Assembly: GCA_044892525.1 (NCBI GenBank)
Contig: CM097886.1
Span: forward strand, 36,456,001-36,520,000
Length of the DNA stretch: 64,000 nucleotides
Direction: 5' to 3'
Source: Schmidtea polychroa
Lineage: Eukaryota
Part shown: piece after piece, positions 7,628 through 36,405 of the stretch
Layout: the number at the start of each line of letters is the position of its first letter
How positions within the stretch are numbered: position 1 is the stretch's first letter
Program-made: the position numbers and the translations under genes
The notes under the pieces: generated by a model
Database searches by the model: none
Told to the model about the DNA's origin: nothing
What the model saw: the letters and a program-made list of their open reading frames with translations, nothing else

Positions 7628-8319
7628 TGTTGAGGATACATAAATAACAAATTTATAAATAAATAAAATTACTAGGGAAAAGATCGTCATGATAAAGGAG
7701 ATGATCTATTGGAACTCGTAGAAAGAAATGAGAAAGATAGATCAAAACAACGAAAGGGGAAAACAGAGCATATCTCGACATCTGTCAGAGATAAGGCTGA
7801 AATAACGTGGAATACAGAGAAGAAAGTAAACAAAATTATCTCAAGTATTGCAAATGGGGCAAGCTATAAAAAAGAAGACACAGAAGTTAAGTTAGCTATA
7901 AGAGAGTTAGAGTTAAATTTAGAGAATAAAGAGAGAAATTAACAAGAGTTAAAAGAAGAATTAAACAGAGTTAAAATAAAGTGAGCCCAAAGTAACAGAA
8001 TTGAACTAGTTGATAAATAATTGATTGGGAGAGTGACGAGAATCATCTATAAAATTGAATTAAAAGTGGAGTGAACAAAGCTGTGGTCAAAGCAAATAGA
8101 ACAATCGATCAACGTACCATGTAATTGAGTTGGTTGACGGTTAGTGATTATTGTTGTTTTTACAGAAACTATACGTAGTGTCGCAATAAGTTCTGTGTAA
8201 TTAATTGGTTGTAATTGCAACTTGTACGATCTATTGTGAAGATTAATAAAGCTTATCTGGTTTGGAAGTTAATTTGTAAATTTATAAAACACACTTTGGA
8301 GTCAACTAAGACTTTAACA
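7628..8319. mobile_element. Solo LTR, copy 1 of a local family
   Basis: Begins TGTTGAGGATA and ends AACA; flanks ATAT/ATAG are a near-match 4-bp TSD. Shares blocks (GCATATCTCGACATCTGTCAGAGATAAGG, TGGTCAAAGC, TTGGAGTCA) with the copies at 49140 and 62241. Confidence 0.6.
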
Positions 8320-8764
8320 ATAGAACTACCAAAAAAATAACTTATTTTAACTAGTGTGGTATAAGTAGCCAAAGTAAAAAAAACTTTATTCCTGGTCAAG
8401 TTGCTGATGAGTTAGATTAAGAATCTTCTGAATATATAGGATTGTATATTTATTCCAAGTAGAGAAAATTTTGTTGTAGCTGATTCATTAGTTAATTGTG
8501 GGTTAGAGTTAATAGTGGTAAAACTAAACTAGGTCATATTGAAAATGACTACGACATTGATATGGAATGTGGCGGAGAAATCCTACATAAAATGTCAAAT
8601 ATTTAGTACAGGTAAGTTGGGAATACTCAAGACTCATCATGTTTAAATTAAGACATATTTTAAAATGAGTTGAATTAGAAAAGTATTTGAATAATTACAG
8701 CTTTAGAGATCATCATGGAATTTTCGAGAATAGTAAATGAAAAATTGAGATAAAAATATGCGTA

Positions 8765-8958
8765 CTTTCCGGCTATCTCGACATTATCAAAAAATGAACA
8801 GTTTCAATTATAAAAATCTTTTTAAACCGACCAAGTAATTATATAGTCATAGACATTTACATATAGTCTGCGTTTATCTGACAAAGTATTTTGACCCCTT
8901 AAGGGTTTCAGGTCAATGGGGACTGATCGTTTTTGATGAGGTCGAGATAACCGGAAAG
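8765..8958. mobile_element. Tc1/mariner-type MITE
   Basis: Imperfect ~40-bp TIRs starting CTTTCCGGYTATCTCGAC, with TA on both flanks. Confidence 0.65.
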
Positions 8959-14741: not shown

Positions 14742-16361
14742 TTAAAAAAAACTTTCTCACAATAAATTGATTAACAGTATCAACAAAATAATAACTACCA
14801 CATTCATTATAAATAATAATGAAAAAAAATAACAATTATAATAAAAATTATTAAAAATTAATAAAAATAAAAAGTCAATATTAATAATTATTATCATTTA
14901 AACAAAACACAATTCAAAATTTCCACTAATACTCATTTGCGCGATAAGTGATAGTGATACATATATAATTTTTCAGCAATATACTTCTAAAATAAAATAT
15001 ATTTTATTAAAATTTAATATTTTCAAATCATTAAGTATTTAAACTAGTTCAAAAGATTAATTTAAAAATAATACATATTATAATTAAAGATATTATTTAT
15101 TTAGCATATTAGAAACAAATTTTTCTTGGGAATTCTTTAAAATTATAATATTCATTTCTCAATTTCCTGGAAACAAAAGAAAATGTCGAGAAAAGCAAAT
15201 CACTACATGCAATTTGACTTCAATTTATTATTTAAATTGCTTGTTTTTTAAAAATAAAGTTTCTAATACTCACTTATATAAAATAAAGTAAAATGAAAAT
15301 GATTATTTTATTGAAATGAAGCAGCATAAAGATGAATTAATTGATTAATAGAAATGGTAATTAAATCTCTCCACAAAATATAGGAAACTAATTCTGAAGA
15401 TTTGGTCGGCAAAATAATGACTTTAATTAATACTTTGAAAGTATTCAGGTAAATTATAATAATACATTTTTAATGGATTCTCTCAATTTTGATTATTAAC
15501 CAATTTATAAAAATTTATAAGTTTTCTTTTTAAAACAAATATTATTTTTTATATATTTTATGGAACTCATTTTATAAATATTAGCATATCCGGATACTAT
15601 TCGCTATTGGGTATGCAATTATTTTTATTTAATATTTTTTATATAAAATCAATTGAAATGAACAATTTGTATTTTATTATTTTGTTTTCAACAAATTTTG
15701 GTGGATATCGTTAATATCGTGGTTGTTGTCCAACCTAGTGGGAGGCCTCAGCAAAGCTCTATTTGAGTTATAAATAATAACATAAAATAACCGTAGGGCC
15801 TACGACATAGCAATATGTCCAATGAACTAGTTACTGCCGAAAATGACTATGGCACGCAAGGCTTAAATATTCGTGTGGAATCACATAGTTTAAACGACAT
15901 CATGATATATCTATTGTTAGGGTGTTATATCTAACAAATAAAAGCGAGCTCTTCGTCCCACTGAAGTGTTTGGTTCTTAGTAAAGACATTTTTAATCTTG
16001 TTTCATTTTGTCTTTGTGAGATGTTTTCAGCTGAGAATTAAATATTTTAATAATTTTTTAAGATAATTTTAAATGATAAATAATTGACTATTTAAAATAA
16101 CTTTTAAAAACATTTTTAAATTGAAATTTTTAAATTAAAAAATTTAAACAAGCTTTTTATTAGTAAGTCATTTTTAAATAAATATATTTTAAATATCAAA
16201 ATTTTAATAAATAGTTTTTAAAATATTTTATTCAACGCTGAAAATTTGTTTGGAAATTATACAAATAAATACTTGGAATTATGACGTTAACTTTTGAATC
16301 GGATTTAAAAAATAATTTAGAAGATGTGTTAGCAGCTTCTAATATTCTTCATAGGGTCTTT

Positions 16362-16521
16362 NNNNNNNNNNNNNNNNNNNNNNNNNNNNNNNNNNNNNNN
16401 NNNNNNNNNNNNNNNNNNNNNNNNNNNNNNNNNNNNNNNNNNNNNNNNNNNNNNNNNNNNNNNNNNNNNNNNNNNNNNNNNNNNNNNNNNNNNNNNNNNN
16501 NNNNNNNNNNNNNNNNNNNNN
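16362..16521. other. Assembly gap (N run)
   Basis: Run of N. Confidence 1.
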
Positions 16522-16655
16522 TTTCACCTCTGATTTCTTTTCATTTTCAATTGACATTATATTTATTAAAAAATTGACTACGAATCAGTAGAGATATCAA
16601 TATTTATTTGATATATCTACTGATTCATAGTAAATTTTTTAATAAATATAATGTC

Positions 16656-16724
<69 letters not shown>
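16656..16724 (+). repeat. (AAT)n microsatellite with two ACT interruptions
   Basis: Read directly from the sequence. Confidence 0.97.
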
Positions 16725-16816
16725 AGTATAAAATGATGATTGCTTGGTAGCAGCATTTATTATTTAAAACAATAAAATGATAATTTAAGCCTTTTGCTGC
16801 AAATAATGTATTTAAT

Positions 16817-16855
16817 GAAAGAATTTTCGACTATACGATAGTCCTTGTCAATCTC
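16817..16855 (-). ncRNA. Minimal type-I hammerhead ribozyme-like motif in the Penelope 3' region (left-arm copy)
   Basis: Reverse complement of 30627-30665. Confidence 0.55.
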
Positions 16856-17249
16856 CTGGAATTTAGCAATGTTCTTCCCCAAAATACCTTTCAATCTTTC
16901 TTTTATTTCCTTTCTCTTAATTCTCATTGGTTGTAAATATAATGAATTGTTTTACTAAAAACTTTTAAAATTTTTACATTTAAAATTTCAAAATGACACA
17001 AACTAAAAATTTTTAAATTTTTTACAGCTTCTATAATTAGCTTCTAGAAGCCTAATAAAATATTTGAAAATATTTTAAATAAAGCCTCCAATAACTACTT
17101 ATATATGCTATTTAAATATTTCCATAAATGTGTCAATTTTGATTTTCAAACCCTATTTTTTAAAATTTTTTTTTATATTATTCTAATTATTACTTTTTAA
17201 TTTATTCTATTTTTTTAATTTCTTTATATATTGTCAGTTATTCTCAAAG

Positions 17250-18311
17250 TCAATGACAACAGATCAAATTCATGATTTCATTGATTTCTTCTTTAGTGTT
17301 GATCTTTGGCTGTCTGTTTATGATGAGAATTGCTTCTTTGATTCTGACATTTTTCTTTTGGATGTTTCCATTAGCTATGATTTCTATTGAAATATTTTTT
17401 CTTTCTTCTGTTGGCTGACACTGCCGGAGATGTCTACCCAACGGGGATGTTCCACCAGGATCTAGATGTTCTTTAACTCTTTGGTGCAATGTCCTGAGGG
17501 TACTTCCAATGTAGATTTCATTGCATACATTGCACGTGATGCAATAGACGATGTTTTTTCTAAAGCACATATCTTTCGGTGTCTGGCAGTTTTTCATTGT
17601 GCAATTGTTTTCTCTATTTATGTTGCCTGCCAGAGCCCTTCTCAATGTCCAAGATTTATGTGCTATCCGAATTGGAAGACCGGTACGTTTAAGTTCTTTC
17701 AGGATCTTGAAGTCGAGTATGTCACTGATGAATGGGATATTCAGATAGAAATATTTCTGATTCTTTTGTGTTAATTCCCTAGATCTTCTTGGGGTAGAAT
17801 TCATTCTTTCAATGTCCTCACCTTGGTATCCGTTTCGGTGTAGGATTTTATTGAAATTTGATTGCTCTTTAAAGTTTTCGTTTTTCTCCGTGCATCGATT
17901 GGCTATTCTTCGTTTCTCGTTTCTTATGACATGTACTTTCTGTAAGTATGGAAGCGCTGATCTTTGGTGCATAAATATTTCTTTGCGAGCTGGTTTTCTG
18001 TAGAACCCGTATGTTGGAGTATTTTCTTCTATTTTGATTCTCAAATCCAATAAATTGAGGGATCCATCTTCTTCCGGATATTCGATTTCGAACTTAATAT
18101 CTTGATGAGCCGCATTGAATTTATGAAATATTTCCTCCGCTTCTTTTTTGTTTTTGGTCGTGATGAAGATATCATCTACATATCTTGCATAGAAACCGAT
18201 GGGTTGTATGGTCCTCAGTGTCTGTCGTTCGAGGTTATCCATAAAGATGATTGCTAGCAGTCCTGATATGCTAGAACCCATAGGCAGACCTTTAACTTGT
18301 TTATAGAACAT
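17250..18311 (-). mobile_element. Penelope-like element, C-terminal RT plus GIY-YIG endonuclease (left arm)
   Basis: FYKQxKGLPMGS, ARYVDDIF, LNLLDL and FYRKP mark RT. NIVYCITCNVCNEIYIGST.RTLHQRVKEH and KEAILI...PKIN mark GIY-YIG. The ATG is created at the junction with the filler. Confidence 0.93.
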
Positions 18312-19356
18312 ATCTCGACATCTGTCAGAGATAAGGCTGAAATAACGTGGAATACAGAGAAGAAAGTAAACAAAATTATCTCAAGTATTGCAAATGGGGC
18401 AAGCTATAAAAAAGAAGACACAGAAGTTAAGTTAGCTTTAAGAGAGTTAGAGTTAAATTTAGAGAATTGAAAGAGAATAAAGAAAGAATTAACAAGAGGT
18501 AAAAGAAGAATTAAACAGAGTTTAAATAAAGTGAGCCCAAAGTAACAGAATTGAACTAGTTGATAAATAATTGATTGGGAGAGTGACGAGAATCATCTAT
18601 AAAATTGAATTAAAAGTGGAGTGAACAAAGTTGTGGTCAAAGCAAATAGAACAATCGATCAACGTACCATGTAATTGAGTTGGTTGACGGTTAGTGATTA
18701 TTGTTGTTTTTACAGAAACTATACGTAGTTTCGCAATAAGTTCTGTGTAATTAATTGGTTGTAATTGTAACTTGTACGATCTATTGTGAAGATTAATAAA
18801 GCTTATCTTGTTTGGAAGTTAATTTGTAAATTTATAAAACACACTTTGGAGTCAGCTAAGACTTTAACAATAGAACTACCAAAAAAATAACTTATTTTAA
18901 CTAGTGTGGTATAAGTAGCCAAAGTAAAAAAAAACTTTATTCCTGGTCAAGTTGCTGATGAGTTAGATTAAGAATCTTCTGAATATATAGGATTGTATAT
19001 TTATTCCAAGTAGAGAAAATTTTGTTGTAGCTGATTCATTAGTTAATTGTGGGTTAGAGTTAATAGTGGTAAAACTAAACTAGGTCATATTGAAAATGAC
19101 TACGACATTGATATGGAATGTGGCGGAGAAATCCTACATAAAATGTCAAATATTTAGTACAGGTAAGTTGGGAATACTCAAGACTCATCATGTTTAAATT
19201 AAGACATATTTTAAAATGAGTTGAATTAGAAAAGTATTTGAATAATTACAGCTTTAAAGATCATCATGGAATTTTCGAGAATAGTAAATGAAAAATTGAG
19301 ATAAAAATATGCGTACTTTCCGGCTATCTCGACATTATCAAAAAATGAACAGTTTC
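18309..19356 (+). repeat. ~1.05-kb filler matching 7769-8805 (partial LTR, flank and MITE TIR), left arm
   Basis: Colinear with 7769-8805 from CATATCTCGAC to GAACAGTTTC, with about ten substitutions and a short indel. Confidence 0.93.
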
Positions 19357-20148
19357 GGGAACAAAAGAATCAAGAAAACATTTTGAAAACGTATTTGAAT
19401 AACCACCCAAAAGAATTGATCTACGAGGTACAAAGACAATCCTTCATGACAGCAGAAGCACATTATTCCTTGCGATTTGACAAAAGAATCAAACACCTTT
19501 TGAGAAAAAAGGAGCTCAAAGCAGGCCTAGTTATGAACAATGAAACACTGGACGGAAACGAAAGCATTACAGTGAACAAAGAACTAGTAACCGACCTCAC
19601 AAATTGTCTATCCAAAGGTGAAAAAGGATTACTTTCACTAGGACCAAAGTTCAGTATAAACAGAGAAATAGATGACGCAGCCATCCTCAATTTCAAAACA
19701 GCTCTTTGTCGCATTGCGTACCAGATCAAATGGAACAATACAATACCGCATGAAAATGAAAATAGCGAAAACCAGCTCCCAGTATACATAAACACAGATA
19801 AACTCTATCAACCAAATCCTGATGCAGAATTAGATTCAACACTCTCAAAGGTCTGTCACAAAATCATGGAGATAGTTGAGAAGGAAAGAAGAAAACCATA
19901 TCTCTCAAACCTAACGAAAGACGAACAGGCAATATTAAAATCCCTTAAAAAGAAACCGTACGTTTACTTACCAAGTGACAAGGGGGGAGAATTTTGCATT
20001 ATAGAGAAGAATCGTTACTGTGAAGCTGGTTACGAACACCTCGGCAACATCGAAACATACAAGAAAGTCAGCCGCATGTCACCAAACACCATCGAAATGA
20101 AGATCAACAAAGTATGGAAAGCCATAGCTTTGGAAATAAGGCTCAACA
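19357..20148 (+). mobile_element. Penelope-like element N-terminal fragment, inverted relative to the RT/GIY-YIG part (left arm)
   Basis: LLSLGPKF, SNLTKDEQAILKSLK, LPSDKGG and HLGNIETY are typical of the region preceding PLE RT. The stop codon comes from the adjacent TIR. Confidence 0.85.
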
Positions 20149-20394
20149 AGTAGTGAGGAATCTATGCACCCCAGCACCCCCACCCTAAAAAAAAACAGCG
20201 CTATTGACCCATATTTTCCACATTTATATGCTTTTTTACCCCATATTCTTCACTTTTTTTAACTTTTAAACTTTGTCCCCTATTGCCATTAACCCTTAAT
20301 TTCTTCCCTTAAAAGTAAAAAAGTTCGGAATAGATGTATTTATAGATTACTAATTCCGAGAAAAGGTAACGGGGTGCATAGATTCCTCACTACT
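20149..20394. mobile_element. 246-bp element with 24-26-bp TIRs (AGTAGTGAGGAATCTATGCACCCC), left-arm copy
   Basis: Perfect inverted repeats at 20147-20172 and 20371-20396; no direct-repeat TSD visible. Confidence 0.8.
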
Positions 20395-20538
20395 TGGTCT
20401 TAAGGATTTAATGTTATAAGGATTTAATGTTATAAGAATATCAGATTACCTAATTCATAATGATCTAGGTCGCCTGATCACCTTAAGGTTTTGAAAGTTT
20501 TAAAAATAAAAAATTTTATGAAAATAGTAAAACTGCTC

Positions 20539-20910
20539 TGAGGGGACAGTGGTTTTTTTTTTTTTTTTTTTTTTTTCACTGTCCCCTCAACAGTTTTTTT
20601 TTGATCCGGATCATTTTTTTTTTTTATTTATCAACCTCTTTCGTTTATCAAATCTCTTCCAATATACAAGCTGGCCAGACTCATACATCAGAATCAATCC
20701 GATAATAGCAGCACGCCTTATTATTCGCTTCTCGCTCACGAAGTCGATTTCAACGGCGTTTTAAGTGTGCTGCTCGAAAGTACAAATGAATTCGAAAGCG
20801 AATCCGAAAGAGGTCCGAAAACAACTGAGAAATAAATGTGCACATTACCGGGATCGATCCGGGGGTGTTCGAAAGACAGGTGGCGATAATTACCGGTTCG
20901 CCACCATCAC
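20539..20910. promoter_or_regulatory. CpG-rich non-coding block with hairpins (left-arm copy); function unknown
   Basis: 13-bp stem TGAGGGGACAGTG/CACTGTCCCCTCA around a T24-containing loop, a GATCCGGATC palindrome, several CGAAA motifs, and a GGTGGCGA/TCGCCACC stem. Confidence 0.4.
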
Positions 20911-21077
20911 CCGTTTCAATATTTTTTTTTTCATATTTATGTTTAAAAAATAATTAATTAATAAAAAAATAAAATAAAATAAAATAAATAAAATAAAATA
21001 TACAAGTACTTTATAAATATAAGATACCCACACTATTTTCAATATTATTTTCAAATTTTTAATATTATTTTATGTTG

Positions 21078-21885
21078 AAAAAAAACTAACCTCAGATGTG
21101 ATTTGAACCACTATCCATTTGAACCACTGTGCCAGTCTATTCCCACTGCGCCATCAAGGTTTGAATTTTTGTCATTTTTTAGACTATAAATAATCGATAC
21201 AAGTTCTTTAACTCTTTCCTGTAATTGTTTCATTTTCTTCAATCTTATATCAGCAACATCTACAGCCTTCATATAAAAATGTCGATACTTTTCATTATCT
21301 ACCATCAACTCTTTGATGTATTCTAATGGTTCTTCTTCTCTTCTTTTCATTCTCTTATGTCTAACTTCATTCAATTCATTTCTCATTCTTTCTTTTAACT
21401 CATCCATTTTTATAAATATTTTTTTATTGGATATATTAATTTTTGGTAGTTAAAACGTTTTTGATCTTAAATTTCCAAGAGTTGCCGTTGACCAATCTCC
21501 TTAAAAATTTGTACAAGTACTAAATCGAGTATGCTGATCAATATTTCGTTAAAAAAAATTTGAAAAAAAATGACAGAAATGGGATTTGAACCCATTGGTA
21601 TTGGCAATGCAGTCGAGTGCTATTACCACTAAGCTATTAGAGCTATACTCAATATAAAATAAGTTGTTAATGTGTGACTATTTATTGATGAAATTAATAA
21701 TTAATTATTCATTTTCTCGACAACTACCACTCAGATCCATCTGAAAATTTAAATATATACTAAAATCAGTACGCTGAATCAGATTCCGTTGAAAAAATAT
21801 CGATAAAAATTGACCAAAATCGAAAATTGAACCCGGTACTCCCGGTGATAAAATTGAAGCCTATTCCCACTCCGCTATAATGGCT
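21078..21885 (-). ncRNA. Three tRNA-like Pol III (A-box/B-box) units, left-arm copy
   Basis: Mirror image of 25596-26405. Confidence 0.6.
21111..21407 (-). CDS. 98-aa orphan, predicted helical/coiled-coil protein (left-arm copy)
   Basis: Open in both arms, with TATAAAAATG start context like the capsid gene. No family recognised. Confidence 0.45.
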   Translation of the reverse strand: MDELKERMRNELNEVRHKRMKRREEEPLEYIKELMVDNEKYRHFYMKAVDVADIRLKKMKQLQERVKELVSIIYSLKNDKNSNLDGAVGIDWHSGSNG

Positions 21886-21940
21886 TACATAATATATTTA
21901 ATTAATCCTATTTTGTGTGTGTAAATTTTAATATATAAAA

Positions 21941-22157
21941 ATGAATAACATAAATCTTAAAATTCAAGAAAAAAATAAAAGTATCAGACCAAGATGATCG
22001 ATTAGCCATAAATAATGTTGATGTTACACTTCATGTAACAAAGGATTCTAATTTTAAAGCTAAAGTATATACATTAATATTAGAAGAAAAGAAAATAGAA
22101 ATGAAATTATATGGTGGAAAGATTTCAATAATCGAAAATGTTAGGGGAGATTCTTGA
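21941..22157 (+). pseudogene. Internally deleted copy of the major capsid gene
   Basis: MNNINLKIQEKNK is joined to the region encoding VSDQDDRL by a 1076-bp deletion relative to 24248-25540, causing a frameshift and an early TGA. Confidence 0.93.
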
Positions 22158-22175
22158 TATTTTCAACCTTGTGAT

Positions 22176-23732
22176 ATGGTTGATTGGTATAAGGAAAAGA
22201 TTTTAGAATCAGATATTAGTAATAAAAATGATTATATTTGTGAAGAAGGGCAGGAGGCAATTCAAGTTTTATTCTCTAATAAACCTGAAGATGTTTTACA
22301 TTGTGATTTACTTCCTAAAGATAAAAAGAATAATAAATATTGGAGATGTGAAAGTTGTAATTGTCAAGTTACAAGACATAATAAAGCAAGTCATTTAAAA
22401 ACTAAAAAACATACAGGAGGTGATCTAATTCCACGAGCTGGAGGCGATTTGCAATCTTCAAAAACAACATCTTCAATATTAAAACCTTGTACTACAGAAA
22501 AATATCCAGGTGAAAGACATTTATTTAAACACAACTATACTGGACCAGGAACACGTCTAGATATTAGATTAGATGAAAATAATAATCCCAAACAAGGAGA
22601 AGAACCAATAAATAGAATTGATCAAGCAGCTTTAAAACATGACATTGCATACAATTCAACAAATCTTAGAGATAGACATGTTGCAGATGTGAATTTAATA
22701 CATGATTTAAATAGTATCCAAAATCCATCAACCCAAGAAAAGATTCAAAGAGCTCTAGTTAAATTAGCAATGAAAGGTAAGATTTTCATAGGCTTAGGAC
22801 ACAGTCCGATCACCATGGGTGCAAGACTTCCTAGAATAGCAAAAGATGTTGCTTATAAAAAGATTATCGAACAAGCAGACATTGAAAGATCCCTCGAGAG
22901 TACAGCCAAGACTAGTTTACAAACCCCAACAGAATCAGAAATAAAATACGCAAAGGAATTACACCATGAATTTAGAAAAAATAAAAAATATTTAAAAGTT
23001 CAAGTACATGAAAAAGATCAAACATGGTCTGCAGATTTAGTCTTTATGCCCAAATCATCAGACCCTGAAAAATATAAAATAATTTTAACTGTAATAGATT
23101 TATATACAAGATTTGCTTTTGCAAGATGTTTAGAAAATAAAACAGGATATTCTATTACAGAAGCATTTGAAAATATATTTGAAGAAAATCAAAGAATCCC
23201 AAAATATTTATGGTGTGATAAAGGAACAGAATTTTATAACAAAGTTTTTACAAAGTTTTTAAATGAAAATGATATTAAATTATATTCAACAGAAAACGAA
23301 GGAAAAGCAGTCGTAGTTGAAAGATTAAATAGAACATTAAAAAATAAAATGTGGAAATATTTTACTGCTATTGGAAAACAAAAATGGAACAATGAATTGT
23401 TACAAAAGATTGTAAATGAATATAATAATGATGTACATAGTTCTATAAAATTAACACCTTTAAATGCTTCCATGAAGCCTGAAACCATTAAAGTGGTAAA
23501 TATTGAAAATGATGTTATTGAAAAACCAAAGTTTAAAATTGGTGACCGAGTAAGAATATTTAAATATAAAAATAAATTTGAAAAAGGATTCACAGCAAAA
23601 TGGACAAATGAAATTTTTATTATAAATAAAATACATTATACAACTCCAATAACATATAGCATCTTTGATTTAAATAATGAAAAAATATTAGGTAGATTTT
23701 ATAATAATGAACTACAGAAAACAGATTTTTAA
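22176..23732 (+). CDS. Polinton/Maverick-type integrase with an N-terminal zinc finger and parvovirus-like PLA2 domain; the first 52 codons are copied from the ATPase ORF
   Basis: Zinc finger CESC...HLKTKKH. PLA2 motifs YTGPGT and DQAALKHDIAY...AD. Integrase core WSADL / VIDLYTRF / WCDKGTEF / VERLNRTLK. C-terminal FKIGDRVRI...KWTNEIF...GRFYNNELQK. Confidence 0.9.
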   Translation: MVDWYKEKILESDISNKNDYICEEGQEAIQVLFSNKPEDVLHCDLLPKDKKNNKYWRCESCNCQVTRHNKASHLKTKKHTGGDLIPRAGGDLQSSKTTSSILKPCTTEKYPGERHLFKHNYTGPGTRLDIRLDENNNPKQGEEPINRIDQAALKHDIAYNSTNLRDRHVADVNLIHDLNSIQNPSTQEKIQRALVKLAMKGKIFIGLGHSPITMGARLPRIAKDVAYKKIIEQADIERSLESTAKTSLQTPTESEIKYAKELHHEFRKNKKYLKVQVHEKDQTWSADLVFMPKSSDPEKYKIILTVIDLYTRFAFARCLENKTGYSITEAFENIFEENQRIPKYLWCDKGTEFYNKVFTKFLNENDIKLYSTENEGKAVVVERLNRTLKNKMWKYFTAIGKQKWNNELLQKIVNEYNNDVHSSIKLTPLNASMKPETIKVVNIENDVIEKPKFKIGDRVRIFKYKNKFEKGFTAKWTNEIFIINKIHYTTPITYSIFDLNNEKILGRFYNNELQKTDF

Positions 23733-23743
23733 GTCGACAAGCC

Positions 23744-24229
23744 CTAAAACAAACTTTTCCATATTTCAGCTTCTTCTCTATCCAAATAAATATAATTATA
23801 TTTTTCTTTCCAATGATTATCAACAAACATATCAAACATATTCTTATCAGGTTCAACATTTGAAAATAAATCATTATAAATCATATTCTTATCACGGCGA
23901 TCTAATTTAAAAAATATAAAACAATTGGAATTATTTCTTATTGAATTTTTATCTAAAGCATAATATGTTTGAGATATATAAATAACATTACAATTATTAT
24001 GTCGACCTCGTGTAAAGTAACTCTTTTGAATCTCTTGATTTTTCATATTAACAACATCATCAAATATAACTAGATTCTTTTTATCTTTAGGAAGTAAATC
24101 ACAATGTAAAACATCTTCAGGTTTATTAGAGAATAAAACGTGAATTGCCTCCTGCCCTTCTTCACAAATATAATCATTTTTATTACTAATATCTGATTCT
24201 AAAATCTTTTCCTTATACCAATCAACCAT
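23744..24229 (-). CDS. A32/FtsK-like viral packaging ATPase, lacking the N-terminal Walker A region
   Basis: Walker B LVIFDD, then FTRGRHNNCNVIYISQTY and IRNN. No GxxGxGK motif. Confidence 0.85.
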   Translation of the reverse strand: MVDWYKEKILESDISNKNDYICEEGQEAIHVLFSNKPEDVLHCDLLPKDKKNLVIFDDVVNMKNQEIQKSYFTRGRHNNCNVIYISQTYYALDKNSIRNNSNCFIFFKLDRRDKNMIYNDLFSNVEPDKNMFDMFVDNHWKEKYNYIYLDREEAEIWKSLF

Positions 24230-24247
24230 ATCACAAGGTTGAAAATA

Positions 24248-25540
24248 TCAAGAATCTCCCCTAACATTTTCGATTATTGAAATCTTTCCACCATATAATT
24301 TCATTTCTATTTTCTTTTCTTCTAATATTAATGTATATACTTTAGCTTTAAAATTAGAATCCTTTGTTACATGAAGTGTAACATCAACATTATTTATGGC
24401 TAATCGATCATCTTGGTCTGATACATTTATACAAAATATAGAATATAAATTTTTGAAATCTTCTAAACTTAATTGCGGTTCAACTTTGAAATCATAACAT
24501 GTTTCAATATAATTTAGATATGGGAATATGTTTTCATTATTTTCAATATTAAATTCCATTCTATTTATTGGATAATAAGAACTATTTAATTGAATTTGTA
24601 TTGTTTTTAAATTATCAACTCCAATCTTTTGAATAAACAAGTTGTTATTTTTTTGGAAAGATGAATCTGTTTCTTTGAATCCAATCAAGATATATCTTGG
24701 TCGGTATGCTAAATTTGCTACCTTTATAGAATATGTTGAACCCTCTGTCATACTAAATTCACTACAGATTCTATTTAAATAATTTACATTTATAGACTTG
24801 TTGGAATTTAATCTTTCAAGGAGTTTAATCTCAGAATGTGGGTTTAATGTCCATTCAGGTATATGTAATTCAAGTGTTGATAATTTTAATTTAGCTTTTG
24901 TATCTACAGCTCCATAGAACAATCTTTTATCACCTTCTACTCTATTACAGATGAATTCTATAAAAACATTATGAAGTATACGATTATAGTTTTGAAGGAA
25001 TCCAAACAAGTGTTTTAATTCAAAATAACCTTCAAATTTTTTAGATTTATAAAGTTCAGCTCTTTTATGGTAACCATGGTTTACATCTAAACCATCTTTA
25101 TCTAAATCCCCTTTATTAACATCAGGAATCCAACCTGTTAATTCACCATATTCGTTTTTATAATCACAACCAGTCAAAATAAAATTTAACATTGTAGAAT
25201 ATACTCCCGGATGCAAAACAGTTTCAATTTCTGATGATCCTAGTTTTAATCTCATGTTGGAGAATAAATTTGGAAAGAAATTATTTTCTAGGGTTATATC
25301 TTTGTTTGCTTCAATTTCTAATTCGATTTTATAATATAATTTGGCATTACAAATATCTATAGGGTTTGATGTTTGAAGAGATTGAAAAACTATATCACCC
25401 CTACGATTTAAGTTTGCAATAGATCCTGAAGTTGGAGAGATTTTTAAAATATCATTTTTTTTAATTTCATGAGTAAATTCTTTATTATAATCAAGATTTA
25501 ATTTATTTTTTTCTTGAATTTTAAGATTTATGTTATTCAT
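24248..25540 (-). CDS. Polinton/adintovirus-type major capsid protein (double jelly-roll, hexon-like)
   Basis: Uninterrupted 430-aa ORF with LFSNMRLKLGSSEIE, RPRYILIGF, IQIQLNSSYYP and FKNLYSIFCINVS. It sits next to a packaging ATPase and an integrase. Confidence 0.8.
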   Translation of the reverse strand: MNNINLKIQEKNKLNLDYNKEFTHEIKKNDILKISPTSGSIANLNRRGDIVFQSLQTSNPIDICNAKLYYKIELEIEANKDITLENNFFPNLFSNMRLKLGSSEIETVLHPGVYSTMLNFILTGCDYKNEYGELTGWIPDVNKGDLDKDGLDVNHGYHKRAELYKSKKFEGYFELKHLFGFLQNYNRILHNVFIEFICNRVEGDKRLFYGAVDTKAKLKLSTLELHIPEWTLNPHSEIKLLERLNSNKSINVNYLNRICSEFSMTEGSTYSIKVANLAYRPRYILIGFKETDSSFQKNNNLFIQKIGVDNLKTIQIQLNSSYYPINRMEFNIENNENIFPYLNYIETCYDFKVEPQLSLEDFKNLYSIFCINVSDQDDRLAINNVDVTLHVTKDSNFKAKVYTLILEEKKIEMKLYGGKISIIENVRGDS

Positions 25541-25595
25541 TTTTATATATTAAAATTTACACACACAAAATAGGATTAATTAAATATATTATGTA

Positions 25596-25691
25596 AGCCA
25601 TTATAGCGGAGTGGGAATAGGCTTCAATTTTATCACCGGGAGTACCGGGTTCAATTTTCGATTTTGGTCAATTTTTATCGATATTTTTTTT
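25596..25691 (+). ncRNA. tRNA-like Pol III unit 1
   Basis: A-box TAGCGGAGTGG (25604-25614), B-box GGTTCAATT (25648-25656), then T-runs. Confidence 0.5.
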
Positions 25692-25839
25692 CAACGGAAT
25701 CTGATTCAGCGTACTGATTTTAGTATATATTTAAATTTTCAGATGGATCTGAGTGGTAGTTGTCGAGAAAATGAATAATTAATTATTAATTTCATCAATA
25801 AATAGTCACACATTAACAACTTATTTTATATTGAGTATA

Positions 25840-25920
25840 GCTCTAATAGCTTAGTGGTAATAGCACTCGACTGCATTGCCAATACCAATGGGTTCAAATC
25901 CCATTTCGGTCATTTTTTTT
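25840..25920 (+). ncRNA. tRNA-like Pol III unit 2 (tRNA-Cys-like, not a full cloverleaf)
   Basis: A-box TAGCTTAGTGG, CTGCA in the anticodon-loop position, a perfect T-arm ATGGG-TTCAAAT-CCCAT, and T8 at 25913-25920. Anticodon and acceptor stems pair poorly. Confidence 0.65.
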
Positions 25921-26075
25921 CAAATTTTTTTTAACGAAATATTGATCAGCATACTCGATTTAGTACTTGTACAAATTTTTAAGGAGATTGGTCAACGGCA
26001 ACTCTTGGAAATTTAAGATCAAAAACGTTTTAACTACCAAAAATTAATATATCCAATAAAAAAATATTTATAAAA

Positions 26076-26372
26076 ATGGATGAGTTAAAAGAAAGAATGA
26101 GAAATGAATTGAATGAAGTTAAACATAAGAGAATGAAAAGAAGAGAAGAAGAACCATTAGAATACATCAAAGAGTTGATGGTAGATAATGAAAAGTATCG
26201 ACATTTTTATATGAAGGCTGTAGATGTTGCTGATATAAGATTGAAGAAAATGAAACAATTACAGGAAAGAGTTAAAGAACTTGTATCGATTATTTATAGT
26301 CTAAAAAATGACAAAAATTCAAACCTTGATGGCGCAGTGGGAATAGACTGGCACAGTGGTTCAAATGGATAG
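26076..26372 (+). CDS. 98-aa orphan, predicted helical/coiled-coil protein (right-arm copy)
   Basis: As for the left copy. The C-terminus overlaps Pol III unit 3. Confidence 0.45.
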   Translation: MDELKERMRNELNEVKHKRMKRREEEPLEYIKELMVDNEKYRHFYMKAVDVADIRLKKMKQLQERVKELVSIIYSLKNDKNSNLDGAVGIDWHSGSNG

Positions 26373-26405
26373 TGGTTCAAATCACATCTGAGGTTAGTTT
26401 TTTTT
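26323..26405 (+). ncRNA. tRNA-like Pol III unit 3
   Basis: A-box TGGCGCAGTGG (26330-26340), duplicated AGTGGTTCAAAT B-box, ACCTTG/TGAGGT acceptor-like stem, and T8 at 26398-26405. Confidence 0.55.
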
Positions 26406-26572
26406 CAACATAAAATAATATTAAAAATTTGAAAATAATATTGAAAATAGTGTGGGTATCTTATATTTATAAAGTACTTGTATATTTTATTTTATTTATT
26501 TTATTTTATTTTATTTTTTTATTAATTAATTATTTTTTAAACATAAATATGAAAAAAAAATATTGAAACGGG

Positions 26573-26944
26573 TGATGGTGGCGAACCGGTAATTATCGCC
26601 ACCTGTCTTTCGAACACCCCCGGATCGATCCCGGTAATGTGCACATTTATTTCTCAGTTGTTTTCGGACCTCTTTCGGATTCGCTTTCGAATTCATTTGT
26701 ACTTTCGAGCAGCACACTTAAAACGCCGTTGAAATCGACTTCGTGAGCGAGAAGCGAATAATAAGGCGTGCTGCTATTATCGGATTGATTCTGATGTATG
26801 AGTCTGGCCAGCTTGTATATTGGAAGAGATTTGATAAACGAAAGAGGTTGATAAATAAAAAAAAAAAAATGATCCGGATCAAAAAAAAACTGTTGAGGGG
26901 ACAGTGAAAAAAAAAAAAAAAAAAAAAAAACCACTGTCCCCTCA
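26573..26944. promoter_or_regulatory. CpG-rich hairpin block (right-arm copy)
   Basis: Mirror image of 20539-20910. Confidence 0.4.
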
Positions 26945-27088
26945 GAGCAGTTTTACTATTTTCATAAAATTTTTTATTTTTAAAACTTTCAAAACCTTAA
27001 GGTGATCAGGCGACCTAGATCATTATGAATTAGGTAATCTGATATTCTTATAACATTAAATCCTTATAACATTAAATCCTTAAGACCA

Positions 27089-27334
27089 AGTAGTGAGGAA
27101 TCTATGCACCCCGTTACCTTTTCTCGGAATTAGTAATCTATAAATACATCTATTCCGAACTTTTTTACTTTTAAGGGAAGAAATTAAGGGTTAATGGCAA
27201 TAGGGGACAAAGTTTAAAAGTTAAAAAAAGTGAAGAATATGGGGTAAAAAAGCATATAAATGTGGAAAATATGGGTCAATAGCGCTGTTTTTTTTTAGGG
27301 TGGGGGTGCTGGGGTGCATAGATTCCTCACTACT
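27089..27334. mobile_element. 246-bp AGTAGT-ended TIR element (right-arm copy)
   Basis: Mirror image of 20149-20394. Confidence 0.8.
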
Positions 27335-28126
27335 TGTTGAGCCTCATTTCCAAAGCTATGGCTTTCCATACTTTGTTGATCTTCATTTCGATGGTGTTTG
27401 GTGACATGCGGCTGACTTTCTTGTATGTTTCGATGTTGCCGAGGTGTTCGTAACCAGCTTCACAGTAACGATTCTTCTCTATAATGCAAAATTCTCCCCC
27501 CTTGTCACTTGGTAAGTAAACGTACGGTTTCTTTTTAAGGGATTTTAATATTGCCTGTTCGTCTTTCGTTAGGTTTGAGAGATATGGTTTTCTTCTTTCC
27601 TTCTCAACTATCTCCATGATTTTGTGACAGACCTTTGAGAGTGTTGAATCTAATTCTGCATCAGGATTTGGTTGATAGAGTTTATCTGTGTTTATGTATA
27701 CTGGGAGCTGGTTTTCGCTATTTTCATTTTCATGCGGTATTGTATTGTTCCATTTGATCTGGTACGCAATGCGACAAAGAGCTGTTTTGAAATTGAGGAT
27801 GGCTGCGTCATCTATTTCTCTGTTTATACTGAACTTTGGTCCTAGTGAAAGTAATCCTTTTTCACCTTTGGATAGACAATTTGTGAGGTCGGTTACTAGT
27901 TCTTTGTTCACTGTAATGCTTTCGTTTCCGTCCAGTGTTTCATTGTTCATAACTAGGCCTGCTTTGAGCTCCTTTTTTCTCAAAAGGTGTTTGATTCTTT
28001 TGTCAAATCGCAAGGAATAATGTGCTTCTGCTGTCATGAAGGATTGTCTTTGTACCTCGTAGATCAATTCTTTTGGGTGGTTATTCAAATACGTTTTCAA
28101 AATGTTTTCTTGATTCTTTTGTTCCC
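27335..28126 (-). mobile_element. Penelope-like element N-terminal fragment (right arm)
   Basis: ORF 27330-28100, the mirror of 19383-20153. Confidence 0.85.
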
Positions 28127-29172
28127 GAAACTGTTCATTTTTTGATAATGTCGAGATAGCCGGAAAGTACGCATATTTTTATCTCAATTTTTCATTTACT
28201 ATTCTCGAAAATTCCATGATGATCTTTAAAGCTGTAATTATTCAAATACTTTTCTAATTCAACTCATTTTAAAATATGTCTTAATTTAAACATGATGAGT
28301 CTTGAGTATTCCCAACTTACCTGTACTAAATATTTGACATTTATGTAGGATTTCTCCGCCACATTCCATATCAATGTCGTAGTCATTTTCAATATGACCT
28401 AGTTTAGTTTTACCACTATTAACTCTAACCCACAATTAACTAATGAATCAGCTACAACAAAATTTTCTCTACTTGGAATAAATATACAATCCTATATATT
28501 CAGAAGATTCTTAATCTAACTCATCAGCAACTTGACCAGGAATAAAGTTTTTTTTACTTTGGCTACTTATACCACACTAGTTAAAATAAGTTATTTTTTT
28601 GGTAGTTCTATTGTTAAAGTCTTAGCTGACTCCAAAGTGTGTTTTATAAATTTACAAATTAACTTCCAAACAAGATAAGCTTTATTAATCTTCACAATAG
28701 ATCGTACAAGTTACAATTACAACCAATTAATTACACAGAACTTATTGCGAAACTACGTATAGTTTCTGTAAAAACAACAATAATCACTAACCGTCAACCA
28801 ACTCAATTACATGGTACGTTGATCGATTGTTCTATTTGCTTTGACCACAACTTTGTTCACTCCACTTTTAATTCAATTTTATAGATGATTCTCGTCACTC
28901 TCCCAATCAATTATTTATCAACTAGTTCAATTCTGTTACTTTGGGCTCACTTTATTTAAACTCTGTTTAATTCTTCTTTTACCTCTTGTTAATTCTTTCT
29001 TTATTCTCTTTCAATTCTCTAAATTTAACTCTAACTCTCTTAAAGCTAACTTAACTTCTGTGTCTTCTTTTTTATAGCTTGCCCCGTTTGCAATACTTGA
29101 GATAATTTTGTTTACTTTCTTCTCTGTATTCCACGTTATTTCAGCCTTACCTCTGACAGATGTCGAGATATG
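28127..29172 (-). repeat. Filler matching 7769-8805 (right arm)
   Basis: Mirror image of 18309-19356. Confidence 0.93.
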
Positions 29173-30231
29173 TTCTATAAACAATTTAAAGGTCTGCCTA
29201 TGGGTTCTAGCATATCAGGACTGCTAGCAATCATCTTTATGGATAACCTCGAACGACAGACACTGAGGACCATACAACCCATCGGTTTCTATGCAAGATA
29301 TGTAGATGATATCTTCATCACGACCAAAAACAAAAAAGAAGCGGAGGAAATATTTCATAAATTCAATGCGGCTCATCAAGATATTAAGTTCGAAATCGAA
29401 TATCCGGAAGAAGATGGATCCCTCAATTTATTGGATTTGAGAATCAAAATAGAAGAAAATACTCCAACATACGGGTTCTACAGAAAACCAGCTCGCAAAG
29501 AAATATTTATGCACCAAAGATCAGCGCTTCCATACTTACAGAAAGTACATGTCATAAGAAACGAGAAACGAAGAATAGCCAATCGATGCACGGAGAAAAA
29601 CGAAAACTTTAAAGAGCAATCAAATTTCAATAAAATCCTACACCGAAACGGATACCAAGGTGAGGACATTGAAAGAATGAATTCTACCCCAAGAAGATCT
29701 AGGGAATTAACACAAAAGAATCAGAAATATTTCTATCTGAATATCCCATTCATCAGTGACATACTCGACTTCAAGATCCTGAAAGAACTTAAACGTACCG
29801 GTCTTCCAATTCGGATAGCACATAAATCTTGGACATTGAGAAGGGCTCTGGCAGGCAACATAAATAGAGAAAACAATTGCACAATGAAAAACTGCCAGAC
29901 ACCGAAAGATATGTGCTTTAGAAAAAACATCGTCTATTGCATCACGTGCAATGTATGCAATGAAATCTACATTGGAAGTACCCTCAGGACATTGCACCAA
30001 AGAGTTAAAGAACATCTAGATCCTGGTGGAACATCCCCGTTGGGTAGACATCTCCGGCAGTGTCAGCCAACAGAAGAAAGAAAAAATATTTCAATAGAAA
30101 TCATAGCTAATGGAAACATCCAAAAGAAAAATGTCAGAATCAAAGAAGCAATTCTCATCATAAACAGACAGCCAAAGATCAACACTAAAGAAGAAATCAA
30201 TGAAATCATGAATTTGATCTGTTGTCATTGA
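29170..30231 (+). mobile_element. Penelope-like element, C-terminal RT plus GIY-YIG (right arm)
   Basis: Same motifs as 17250-18311, with one amino-acid difference (QF versus QV). Confidence 0.93.
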
Positions 30232-30626
30232 CTTTGAGAATAACTGACAATATATAAAGAAATTAAAAAAAATAGAATAAATTAAAAAGTAATAATTAGA
30301 ATAATATAAAAAAAAATTTTAAAAAATAGGGTTTGAAAATCAAAATTGACACATTTATGGAAATATTTAAATAGCATATATAAGTAGTTATTGGAGGCTT
30401 TATTTAAAATATTTTCAAATATTTTATTAGGCTTCTAGAAGCTAATTATAGAAGCTGTAAAAAATTTAAAAATTTTTAGTTTGTGTCATTTTGAAATTTT
30501 AAATGTAAAAATTTTAAAAGTTTTTAGTAAAACAATTCATTATATTTACAACCAATGAGAATTAAGAGAAAGGAAATAAAAGAAAGATTGAAAGGTATTT
30601 TGGGGAAGAACATTGCTAAATTCCAG

Positions 30627-30665
30627 GAGATTGACAAGGACTATCGTATAGTCGAAAATTCTTTC
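30627..30665 (+). ncRNA. Minimal type-I hammerhead ribozyme-like motif
   Basis: GAGA-TTGACAAG-GACTA(TCGTA)TAGTC-GAAAATTC-TTTC: a variant core, stem II, a palindromic AATT stem III, and a short stem I. Located in the PLE 3' region. Confidence 0.6.
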
Positions 30666-30717
30666 ATTAAATACATTATTTGCAGCAAAAGGCTTAAATT
30701 ATCATTTTATTGTTTTA

Positions 30718-30803
<86 letters not shown>
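30718..30803 (+). repeat. (AAT)n microsatellite at the PLE 3' end
   Basis: Pure AAT tract, read directly. Confidence 0.97.
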
Positions 30804-32442: not shown

Positions 32443-33950
32443 TCCCCTCTTTTTTAAAAAGCTTTAGCCACTCTGTTTCTTATAAGCCTTTTTCCATTCT
32501 CAAATTTTACTTCATAACTTTTCTCATGTATTTGTTTTATCACTTCAGCAAGTCTAATATATCGATCCTAGTCTTTGTTGTTATCATTTCTTTTTACCAG
32601 CACTATGTCTCCTACTTTGAATTTTCTTTCTGTTATTTCGTTAAAACCCATATTCTCAACCGACATATTTGTAGACCATTCTTTATATATTCTTTTTTCA
32701 AAAACTCTTTCACTTGGAGTTTGTCTAATTGTTTTCTGAAATATAGAATTTAACATAAACTCGACTTCTGGTAATAACTCTACCCAATTCTTGTGATCTT
32801 TATCTTTTAGAGTGATATGAATGGCGTCTCTAATTGTTCTGAATTGTCTTTCGATTAGGCCATTTGCTGAATTGATTTTAACGTTATACTCCTTCATTAA
32901 ATTATTCATGGCTTTGCTCTCTCAATGTAGAAATCTCGGCGCACCAATTTTTAAAATCCAATTATTTCTTAAGATTGCTGTAACGGTTTTTTCGTCTTGT
33001 GATTGCACTGCGTGTAGTGCCACATATTTACTAAAACTATCGATAATTCCTACGATATATCTCATTCCATACTGATTTTGCTTTAGTGGACCATAACAAT
33101 CTATAAATATTGTTTCAAATAAACCTGGTTCTGGCATTTTGTAAATTTTATCCCTAGTTCGTGTTGTTGTAGTTTTCCTCTTTTGACAATTTTCACAACT
33201 TTGAACTACGTCTCGGATCGTTCGTTTCATGTGTATTATTGGAAAATTATTTGACACATATTTCTCAATTTTCATTGGTCCAGCATGGCACAGTTTCTTA
33301 TGATACTTTTTAATGAATTCAATTCTTTTATCATCCGGAATCCATATTTCATTGTTTTCTGTCAATATTACTCCATTCTTTATTATGAATTTGTTACCCT
33401 CATTTTGTTTTATGTTGTTTATGATTTCTGTAATTTCTTTTGAATTCCTTTGCCATTCTTGTTCTGGGTTTTCCGTCATTATTGCCAAAAGTTTCGTTTT
33501 GAGTTTTCTTGTCTTTGGATTAATATGGATGGATAGATTCATTTCTTGACAATGCATCTGCATTGAAATGTTCTTCTCCTTTCCTAAATTGAAATTCTAT
33601 TTCCAAACTACTTAAATAATTTATCCATGTCTGGAATTGTGGAGTGATAGGTTTCTTTGTCTTCATCATATATGTTATGGCTTTATGATCCGTGCGTAGT
33701 ATAAATCTTTTCCCATAAAAATAATGTTTAAAATGATTTGTGAAATAATATATTGCTAAGTTCTTTTCTTGTTATGCAATAACCCACCTCGTGTTTCGGC
33801 ATAGCATGCGATCCATAAGCATAGCATTTTCCTTTCCAGAACTATCTGTCTGTGACAAAACAGAGCCTATACTATCGAAGCTAATATGAAAGATTTTGTA
33901 AAATCAGGAAATTTTAATATTGGTCCATTAATCAACTTATCTTTCCGTTT
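32443..33950 (-). mobile_element. Degenerate Ty3/Gypsy pol (RNase H and integrase) with a probable polypurine tract
   Basis: RNase H: PDFTKSF, ITRKEL, FILRTDHKA and NADALSR. Integrase: HKKLCHAG...CENCQ, IDCYGPL, IIDSFSKY and NGLIERQFRTI. AAAAAAGAGGGGA on the minus strand near 32443-32456. Confidence 0.85.
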
Positions 33951-36180: not shown

Positions 36181-36405
36181 CTATTTTAGTGTATACCCCC
36201 CTTTTGAATTGAAATTCTCAGGACCAAGGAGACCCACCTCAATAATACTTAAAATTATTCATGCTTTTTTTAGTGATAGTCGGATTTTGTATTGAAAATC
36301 CCAAGACCAAGGAGCCCCACCTTAATTGTACTTGAAAATATCCATGCATTTTTAGTGTAGACTGATATTTGTATTGAAAATCCCAGGACCAAGGAGACCC
36401 CCTCA
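36172..36405 (+). repeat. ~82-83-bp tandem repeat, about three diverged copies
   Basis: Core CARGACCAAGGAG.CCC at 36219, 36302 and 36384. Confidence 0.8.

Follow-up and report, generated by a model that had tools for sequence, protein, structure and literature searches.

A 14-kb palindrome in the genome of Schmidtea polychroa is a single-copy composite of a Penelope-like element (PLE) insertion, local chromosomal DNA and a Polinton fragment, and its right half has likely been overwritten in place with its left half by recombination. It lies in a stretch of 64,000 nucleotides of contig CM097886.1, hereafter the window, whose numbering is used throughout. The palindrome is probably a local accident of nested transposons, not a new mobile element; from its sequence we predict neither a function nor movement as a unit.

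The palindrome is present in the assembly as the initial annotation described it, and its coordinates were reproduced. The inverted arms of about 5.6 and 6.65 kb, 16757-22331 and 30725-24074, are reverse complements of each other, with a 1742-bp spacer, 22332-24073, between them. In 10 mononucleotide shuffles of the region the longest inverted match was 18-40 bp. The arms differ by 8 substitutions (18296, 18331, 18395, 20138, 21361, 21575, 21980 and 22265) rather than the roughly seven counted by eye, by 6 indels of 1-2 bp, to which the small length differences noted earlier amount, and by a 1076-bp deletion in the left arm, which had been recognized. This deletion, at about 21975-21979, shows a 5-bp microhomology and breaks the left copy of the capsid gene. 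At the 7 arm-difference sites tested, the derived allele is on the right arm in 4 cases and on the left arm in 3, so both copies have aged since the duplication. Position 16757, formerly given as the left boundary, is indeed where the palindromic arm starts, but the element itself starts at 16725; the segment 16725-16756 is a PLE tail, which rules out random filler. The left end was also said to lie near a gap. A run of N is found at 16362-16521, about 200 bp away, but it may represent masking instead of an assembly gap. Beside the arms, an inverted-repeat comparison within the 64-kb window found no further mirrored DNA longer than 330 bp. The features are as follows.

16656..16724, + strand: left (AAT)n target tract
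16725..16756, - strand: 32-nt PLE tail, found on the left arm only and identical to the opening 32 nt of the PLE ORF; positions 53-84 of natural copy L051
16757..18307, - strand: C', PLE 3' part of the left arm, with 3' UTR, GIY-YIG endonuclease and C-terminal half of the reverse transcriptase (RT); PLE reference positions 3117 to 1566, 98.8% to L051, open frame 17250-18380
18309..19356, + strand: R, copy of local chromosomal DNA from 7769-8805, with 9 substitutions and 4 gaps relative to its source
7769..8805, + strand: local source of R
19357..20148, + strand: N2, 5' piece of the PLE ORF (reference 336-1128), sense strand, stopping at the Polinton terminus
20149..22159, + strand: a*, Polinton left end, with AGTAGT terminus, terminal inverted repeat (TIR), 112-aa ORF (21111-21449, minus) and deletion-broken major capsid gene; matches natural Polinton copy K at positions 1-1832 and 2904-3089
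22160..22331, - strand: c', 172-bp inverted copy of an ATPase segment, bounded by junctions J1 and J2, in the place of a 35-bp intergenic gap found in other Polinton copies
22332..24073, + strand: b, spacer, with a zinc finger-PLA2-rve integrase gene (open frame 22158-23732) and the 3' end of an A32-type ATPase gene (minus)
24074..24245, + strand: c, native ATPase segment, inner end of the right arm
24246..27334, - strand: a', second Polinton left end, with 112-aa ORF, left-type TIR and an uninterrupted double-jelly-roll capsid frame of 433 aa (24248-25549)
27335..28126, - strand: N2', mirrored PLE 5' piece
28127..29173, - strand: R', mirrored local DNA
29174..30725, + strand: C, PLE 3' part of the right arm, without tail, continuing into the AAT tract
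30718..30803, + strand: right (AAT)n target tract

As proposed earlier, each outer end of the palindrome is the 3' end of a PLE and adjoins an (AAT)n tract; both tracts read AAT on the plus strand. A search for the same ends at other loci, with a 27-mer across the PLE tail and 3' end, gave 3099 exact matches genome-wide, or about 3,100 tailed ends. The whole PLE is about 3.1 kb long, and most of the examined copies are truncated. The 855-aa frame of natural copy L049 matches RVT_1 and GIY-YIG in a profile search, a C-x4-C-x6-C stretch lies upstream of the GIY-like motif, where a CX2-5CxxC linker would bear on the clade, and the window carries pieces of this element. Its homologues include no named reference. 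EN+ PLEs may also have a hammerhead ribozyme in the pseudo-LTR; no hammerhead was matched in Rfam at E<=1 in L051, L049 and L044, a search that can miss minimal hammerheads. Inverted, outward-facing 3' ends were found in 20 of 38 copies, a non-random set of top-scoring long copies in which the first 20 were chosen mostly for showing inverted pieces and the remaining 18 top matches were added before this count; the one-sided tail recurs, and L051 has the direct tandem arrangement instead. Inverted or direct pseudo-LTRs and a tail of 30-40 bp, often at one end, are traits of EN+ PLEs (PMC8557442), and here both pseudo-LTR orientations and a 32-nt tail at 16725-16756 only are found. The outward-facing PLE ends are thus a routine insertion structure of this family and nothing special. 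As in Penelope/Poseidon, Neptune and Nematis, for which inverted pseudo-LTRs are described there, a single ORF combines RT with a C-terminal GIY-YIG, an inverted 5'-truncated copy flanks the unit, the tail is at one end and the target is a microsatellite. However, between the arms here lie 1 kb of local DNA and 7 kb of Polinton, mirrored throughout, and the arms have private mutations in common, a sharing that is rare in ordinary copies.

Ordinary PLE arms have independent 5' ends, a one-sided tail and few shared private mutations (4 shared versus 34 arm-specific). This pattern is expected from two independently primed cDNAs, and would be a genomic counterpart of the two-strand, two-start-site priming reported in vitro (PMC11167929). 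The ratio of shared private to arm-specific substitutions in the PLE 3' arms is 3:1 in the palindrome and 4:34 in 16 ordinary palindromes, a pool that omits L107 (two separate insertions); for the smaller pool, 3:1 versus 6:34, Fisher's p is 0.023. These counts are small, and "private" is judged against at most 38 of thousands of PLE copies. Private mutations common to both arms, rare as they are in ordinary palindromes, indicate that the arms were copied after insertion.

The virus-like core named in the initial annotation is of Polinton type: an rve integrase, a Pox_A32 packaging ATPase and a DJR-like_dom double-jelly-roll capsid were found. For the parent family, a search for an adenovirus-like cysteine protease gave only Peptidase_C39 (E 0.035) in a 174-aa frame. 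This family has roughly 3,000 copies in the genome, and its natural copy K matches DNA_pol_B_2 (E 2.8e-15) and rve (E 1.2e-12) in a profile search, while the window Polinton has only the rve integrase, without the protein-primed polymerase (pPolB) and the right end. TIRs with a 6-bp target duplication are a hallmark of Polintons/Mavericks. Copies of this family have AGTAGT termini, and the 6-bp duplication was found in 5 of the 6 copies that have both ends. The right TIR of the palindrome is of the left type and has 0 mismatches to the left TIR in 380 bp. Read on the plus strand, the left arm and spacer keep the natural Polinton order, except for the capsid deletion and for c' in place of the 35-bp gap, so a single insertion accounts for both J1 and J2.

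The joins of this composite are confined to the window. The PLE|TIR junction has 2 matches genome-wide, J1 has 2 (one per arm) and J2 has 1, all in the window. These counts contradict the initial proposal of a composite element mobilised through its PLE ends, as its junctions are present at one locus only. Segment R is found at full length only at the palindrome and at its source 8 kb upstream, and among 40 scored candidates no other locus spans its junctions. This ties the building of the composite to this locus, and R as a solo LTR or another mobile unit is ruled out by its exclusively local full-length match. The expected junction of a right TIR with M, the 437-bp PLE piece that would have followed it, has 0 matches genome-wide. 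Neither a parent nor the lost right half was found in the 60 kb upstream or the 40 kb downstream, where the two Polintons present are other copies. An empty-site paralogue was not found either: the right flank matches only an 85-110 bp repeat, and 5 loci of this kind lack left-flank sequence. Among 32 pieces listed from Logan contigs of 4 runs, compared with 16700-24070, none bridges a junction. Contigs X19 and X20 match 19085-19356 and then depart from the window over a further 8 letters, and among the pieces listed only the ancestral letter occurs at 18855; the samples behind these contigs may be without the palindrome, or it may have been lost from the contigs.

We consider it rather probable that the palindrome arose by a PLE insertion, a Polinton insertion, a 172-bp inverted insertion and a recombination between nested repeats that replaced the right half. 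The end structure is seen in the sequence, and it would go back to a PLE that entered (AAT)n in the family's usual form, as two cDNAs joined at their truncated ends, the left one tailed. About 1 kb of nearby DNA (R) would have been captured at the cDNA join, giving C'-R-N2-M-C, after which a 15-kb Polinton would have inserted between N2 and M. Behind the capsid gene, the 35-bp gap may have been broken and then patched with the inverted ATPase copy; J1 and J2 are seen in the sequence, and this repair is their putative cause. The patch would have created an inner inverted repeat, at which recombination could enter, with the outer PLE arms as its exit; the mechanism may have been fold-back synthesis following a break, or else a crossover of flipped with unflipped chromatids. 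By either route, the mirror of a-N2-R would have replaced 10.2 kb of Polinton, including the polymerase and the right TIR, together with M. The left capsid copy has lost its 1076 bp at the microhomology, presumably as the last step. The Polinton insertion, the inverted insertion and the recombination may also have followed one another in a different order. Against this series, divergence in the outer PLE arms, at 1 substitution in about 1550 bp, does not exceed that in the inner parts, at 7 in about 4020 bp, so the conversion must reach at least 870 bp into C. In addition, no intermediate was found, such as a Polinton with c' only or an unconverted locus, and a 1-kb foreign filler at a PLE inner join has no precedent in 19 single-insertion palindromes, whose inner joins show gaps of -10 to +25 bp plus PLE fragments. 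L107, a candidate precedent for a large filler, was rejected, being two different PLE copies 2.5 kb apart.

The initial annotation had also proposed a copy-back defective Polinton genome. This does not hold for the palindrome as a whole: the mirror continues past the TIR into 3.4 kb of DNA that is not Polinton, and the right TIR is followed by the mirrored left flank, which is PLE sequence, and not by a 6-bp target duplication. A reduced version, in which an 8.3-kb snap-back genome (a-c'-b-c-a', a left end on either side) arose during Polinton replication and entered the PLE palindrome, and a later loop conversion between two long stems swapped M for the mirror of R-N2, is unlikely, if the least so of the alternatives. 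A precedent is locus E, a left-half Polinton palindrome elsewhere with 7-kb arms, a 1.1-kb spacer and the 6-bp duplication GTAGAC on both sides, and the conversion it needs is short, with long homology on either side. However, conversion in place is still required, J1 and J2 were found in none of the other integrated copies, two central junctions are needed here where E has one, and divergence between the Polinton arms does not exceed that of R-N2. The term "copy-back" was not met in the papers searched, a set mostly outside the subscription literature that does not imply absence from print. A shade less plausible is transduction by the PLE. An 8.4-kb read-through RNA (b-c-a'-N2'-R'-C-tail) of a rearranged parent locus, starting at the Polinton integrase gene, would have been copied into two cDNAs placed tail to tail at a new AAT site, with J2 as the usual inner join. 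The ends do match fresh insertions of the family, J2 is blunt like ordinary inner joins, and the shared private alleles could be inherited from the parent. Extension of both target strands by the PLE enzyme has been observed in vitro (PMC11167929), and transduction of a 4-kb module by a PLE is reported (PMC6431247). The foreign DNA between PLE terminal repeats is like that of the latter case, but the cargo here is mirrored, single-copy and without a parent locus in the assembly. Moreover, the landing site would have to be no more than 8 kb from where R originates, each of the two cDNAs would exceed 6.6 kb for an element of about 3.1 kb whose examined copies are mostly truncated, and the 35-bp spacing of the J1 and J2 breakpoints would be largely coincidence. 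If true, an uninterrupted viral capsid gene and an integrase gene would have moved as a 14-kb palindrome via two-strand priming, a striking route for retroelements to shuffle DNA-virus genes.

An artefact of assembly or library is improbable, whether through a chimeric fold-back read, through chimeric amplification or through the merging of haplotypes. The structure is known from the assembly, long AT-rich inverted repeats are hard to assemble, and the N run is near. Nevertheless, the arm ends are asymmetric, with the left-only tail, normal family ends and differing flanks; each arm has derived substitutions of its own and one has a microhomology deletion; and a merge of flipped and unflipped haplotypes needs a read through b-c-a', which is present in neither. 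A chromosomal fold-back typically yields an inverted duplication around a short spacer, and such an event, of the breakage-fusion-bridge type, may have happened to end at the PLE terminus. We regard this as very improbable: the left-only 32-nt tail cannot come from the right arm, the stop at a standard tailless family end and the same reading of the AAT tract on both sides would be chance, and the mirrored DNA does not extend beyond the arms by more than 330 bp in the window. The fold-back or template-switch duplication of the initial annotation is still the closest of its models to the in-place series; the duplication, however, has pre-existing inverted PLE arms as its limits, and the left-only tail could not come from a plain fold-back of the right end.

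Large palindromes can arise from a short inverted repeat and a nearby break, and nested inverted repeats can isomerise. The in-place series resembles such cases in its short, 172-bp inner inverted repeat around a spacer, in the length of its mirrored arms and in a deletion that arose later close to the centre. It differs in that the arms end in a pre-existing outer repeat of retroelement origin, which removes the need for a dicentric chromosome. On this reading, inverted PLE ends, left by the thousands, can serve as exit points for recombination, and a short inner inverted repeat can thereby grow into a long palindrome without a chromosome break.

The parent Polinton family is like the Polintons/Mavericks and adintoviruses of PMC8502044 in having pPolB, an rve integrase, an A32 ATPase, a double-jelly-roll capsid, a PLA2-like domain, TIRs and 6-bp target duplications, while the window copy departs from them in lacking pPolB and the right end. 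The PLA2-like domain here is located in front of the integrase, in one frame with it, whereas PLA2X is described in that paper as a gene with a C-terminal pX-like domain.

The self-comparison of the window shows that segments 16757-22331 and 30725-24074 are inverted arms around a spacer of 1742 bp (22332-24073), as the initial annotation had proposed. In the S. polychroa genome assembly (781 Mb, AT-rich), the window corresponds to C2:36,456,001-36,520,000. The inverted matches found in 10 shuffles, which served as a control for the arms, were of 40 bp at most. The full alignment of the arms confirms the 1076-bp deletion in the left arm, while the roughly seven substitutions annotated earlier become 8; it also contains 6 indels of 1-2 bp. 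The palindrome is real in the assembly, where it has a single copy, and it consists of known parts joined by known kinds of events. An assembly or library artefact is unlikely, because the ends of the palindrome are asymmetric and because each arm carries changes of its own. Two short self-complementary AT-rich hairpin repeats (16024-16244 and 16550-16658), which are MITE-like, lie immediately left of the AAT tract.

The core of the palindrome is derived from a Polinton. Pfam searches identified a double-jelly-roll capsid, an rve and a PLA2-like domain encoded at 22158-23732, and a piece of A32-type ATPase that is below the curated cut-off here and above it in a full copy. Natural Polinton copies are about 15 kb long with termini AGTAGT, and a 6-bp target duplication flanks five of the six for which both ends were found; copy K, a natural copy, has a pPolB frame of 1479 aa. 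The copies run from a TIR through a small ORF, the capsid, a 35-bp gap, the integrase, the ATPase and further sequence to pPolB and the other TIR. We divided this order into segment a (TIR to capsid end), g (the 35-bp gap), b, c (172 bp of the ATPase) and d (the remainder). On the + strand, the core reads a*-c'-b-c-a', where primes denote mirrored versions and a* carries the capsid deletion. Compared with the natural order, inverted c takes the place of g, and a' takes the place of the missing d (10.2 kb), both TIRs being of the left type. Junction J1 (a|c') has a microhomology of 1 bp and J2 (c'|b) has none; they have 2 and 1 exact genome matches, respectively, every one inside the window. 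The c' insert continues the reading frame of the integrase gene and supplies an ATG. The resulting open frame (22158-23732) has 524 codons and covers the ATPase piece, a zinc finger, the PLA2-like domain and rve; this fusion may be due to chance.

Pieces of a PLE, whose frame of 855-867 aa encodes RT-GIY-YIG, are located outside both TIRs.

PLE pieces, in coordinates of the PLE reference
336-1128: N2, the 5' piece, outside the TIR
1129-1565: M, the middle piece, missing from the palindrome
1566 to end: C (C' in the left arm), the 3' arm, outside the TIR

The annotated PLE 3' ends at (AAT)n were borne out. The left arm alone carries a 32-nt tail (16725-16756), identical to the start of the PLE ORF, and the right arm reaches (AAT)n at its no-tail end. 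Inverted 3' ends that face outward are found in 20 of the 38 top-hit PLE copies, one of the 20 (L107) consisting of two separate insertions. In ordinary PLE palindromes, the 5' points of the two arms are independent. The inner join ranges from -10 to +25 bp and sometimes includes additional PLE fragments; in most cases a single arm has the tail. Inverted 5'-truncated copies, a one-sided tail of 30-40 bp and microsatellite targeting are among the PLE traits described in PMC8557442, and PMC11167929 reports a purified PLE enzyme that cuts and extends both target strands, starting at two sites a tail apart. Given these copies, traits and two-strand priming, the outer ends are routine for the family. 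Both elements have undergone very large, young expansions in this genome, with 2993 exact matches to an 18-mer from the Polinton left part and 3099 matches to the 27-mer of the PLE tail end.

Between C' and N2 lies R (18309-19356), a local piece that matches window 7769-8805 with 4 gaps and 9 substitutions. Some 35 kb upstream of the window there is a partial paralogue (94%); the other genome matches cover the first 550 bp only, to an old repeat (73-84%). R links the composite's assembly to this region. The R|C' join has an imperfect microhomology of about 3 bp and the R|N2 join is blunt. Part of the difference between R and its assembled source is allelic, since contigs from two public runs agree exactly with the R version at 18408-18553. 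Segment 5020-8563 of the window has a duplicate (96-98%) some 35-40 kb upstream of where the window starts.

Of the 7 substitution sites that were tested, 4 carry the derived letter in the right arm and 3 in the left arm. In the PLE 3' arms of the palindrome, 3 private substitutions are shared and 1 site differs between the arms over 1491 columns; the corresponding counts for 16 ordinary PLE palindromes, leaving out L107 (22 differences) and three loci with arms below 250 bp, are 4 and 34 over 13,301 columns. Fisher's test of 3:1 against 6:34 in a smaller pool gave p = 0.023, with small counts and private status judged against at most 38 PLE copies. N2 contributes 2 more shared private sites and 1 difference. 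The numbers are small, but they indicate that, in contrast to ordinary insertions, copying or exchange between the arms took place when the PLE already had changes of its own.

The simplest series of events, which we consider fairly probable, would comprise five steps in place; the parts and junctions are observed, and the steps and their order are our reconstruction. The PLE would insert as C'-R-N2-M-C, its inner join capturing R, and a Polinton would integrate at N2|M. A templated inverted insertion of c' would then replace g; this single event would yield both J1 and J2 and account for the 35-bp distance between their breakpoints. The nested repeats c'/c and C'/C would next undergo homologous recombination that replaced d, the right TIR and M with a'-N2'-R'. 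This recombination may have taken the form of fold-back synthesis that began at a break in d, or of a crossover at c involving chromatids with interiors flipped relative to each other. Last would come the microhomology deletion seen in the left capsid copy. Three points speak against this series: intermediates were not found, the outer arms are no older than the inner arms, and the 1-kb filler at the inner join has no precedent among 19 ordinary PLE palindromes. The right-TIR|M junction expected of a Polinton at N2|M has no match in the assembly, and no leftover of this Polinton copy was seen within the 60 kb upstream and the 40 kb downstream. Two other Polinton copies are nearby, one 17-28 kb upstream of the window and one 5-17 kb past its end.

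A copy-back Polinton that integrated first, followed by a short conversion, would give the same product. We regard this as improbable, although locus E (C1:98,867,493-98,882,534) shows that left-half Polinton palindromes with a 6-bp duplication exist. The PLE might instead have transduced a chimeric RNA of 8.4 kb. This reading fits the palindrome's ends, but it lacks a parent locus in the assembly and requires landing beside the source of R, and it seems to us slightly less probable still than the copy-back route.

Locus E is a gene-bearing Polinton with two left halves head to head, arms of 7 kb, a 1.1-kb spacer and a perfect target duplication. Of the 24 sites at which its arms differ, 21 fall within the outer 334 columns, and thus its two TIRs are of different types. 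At C3:112,541,633-112,567,275, two right halves from different subfamilies form a head-to-head fusion of 25.6 kb with 9.2-kb arms that are 92% alike; no target duplication was seen there. Polinton copies are about 98% alike across the left 10 kb, yet have two polymerase-side types at only 70%. PLE tail matches at C1:15.61-15.93 Mb have a similar minus-minus-plus pattern repeating each 55-130 kb, which suggests a tandem segmental array. In the window, AT-rich minisatellites at 33952-36409 form an imperfect inverted repeat centred on the N run 35525-35670, and other transposon fragments are present.

Other transposon fragments in the window
1129-1599: RT
12962-13507: DDE_1 transposase (weak)
32568-33771: LTR-retrotransposon integrase
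45545-47190: hAT transposase
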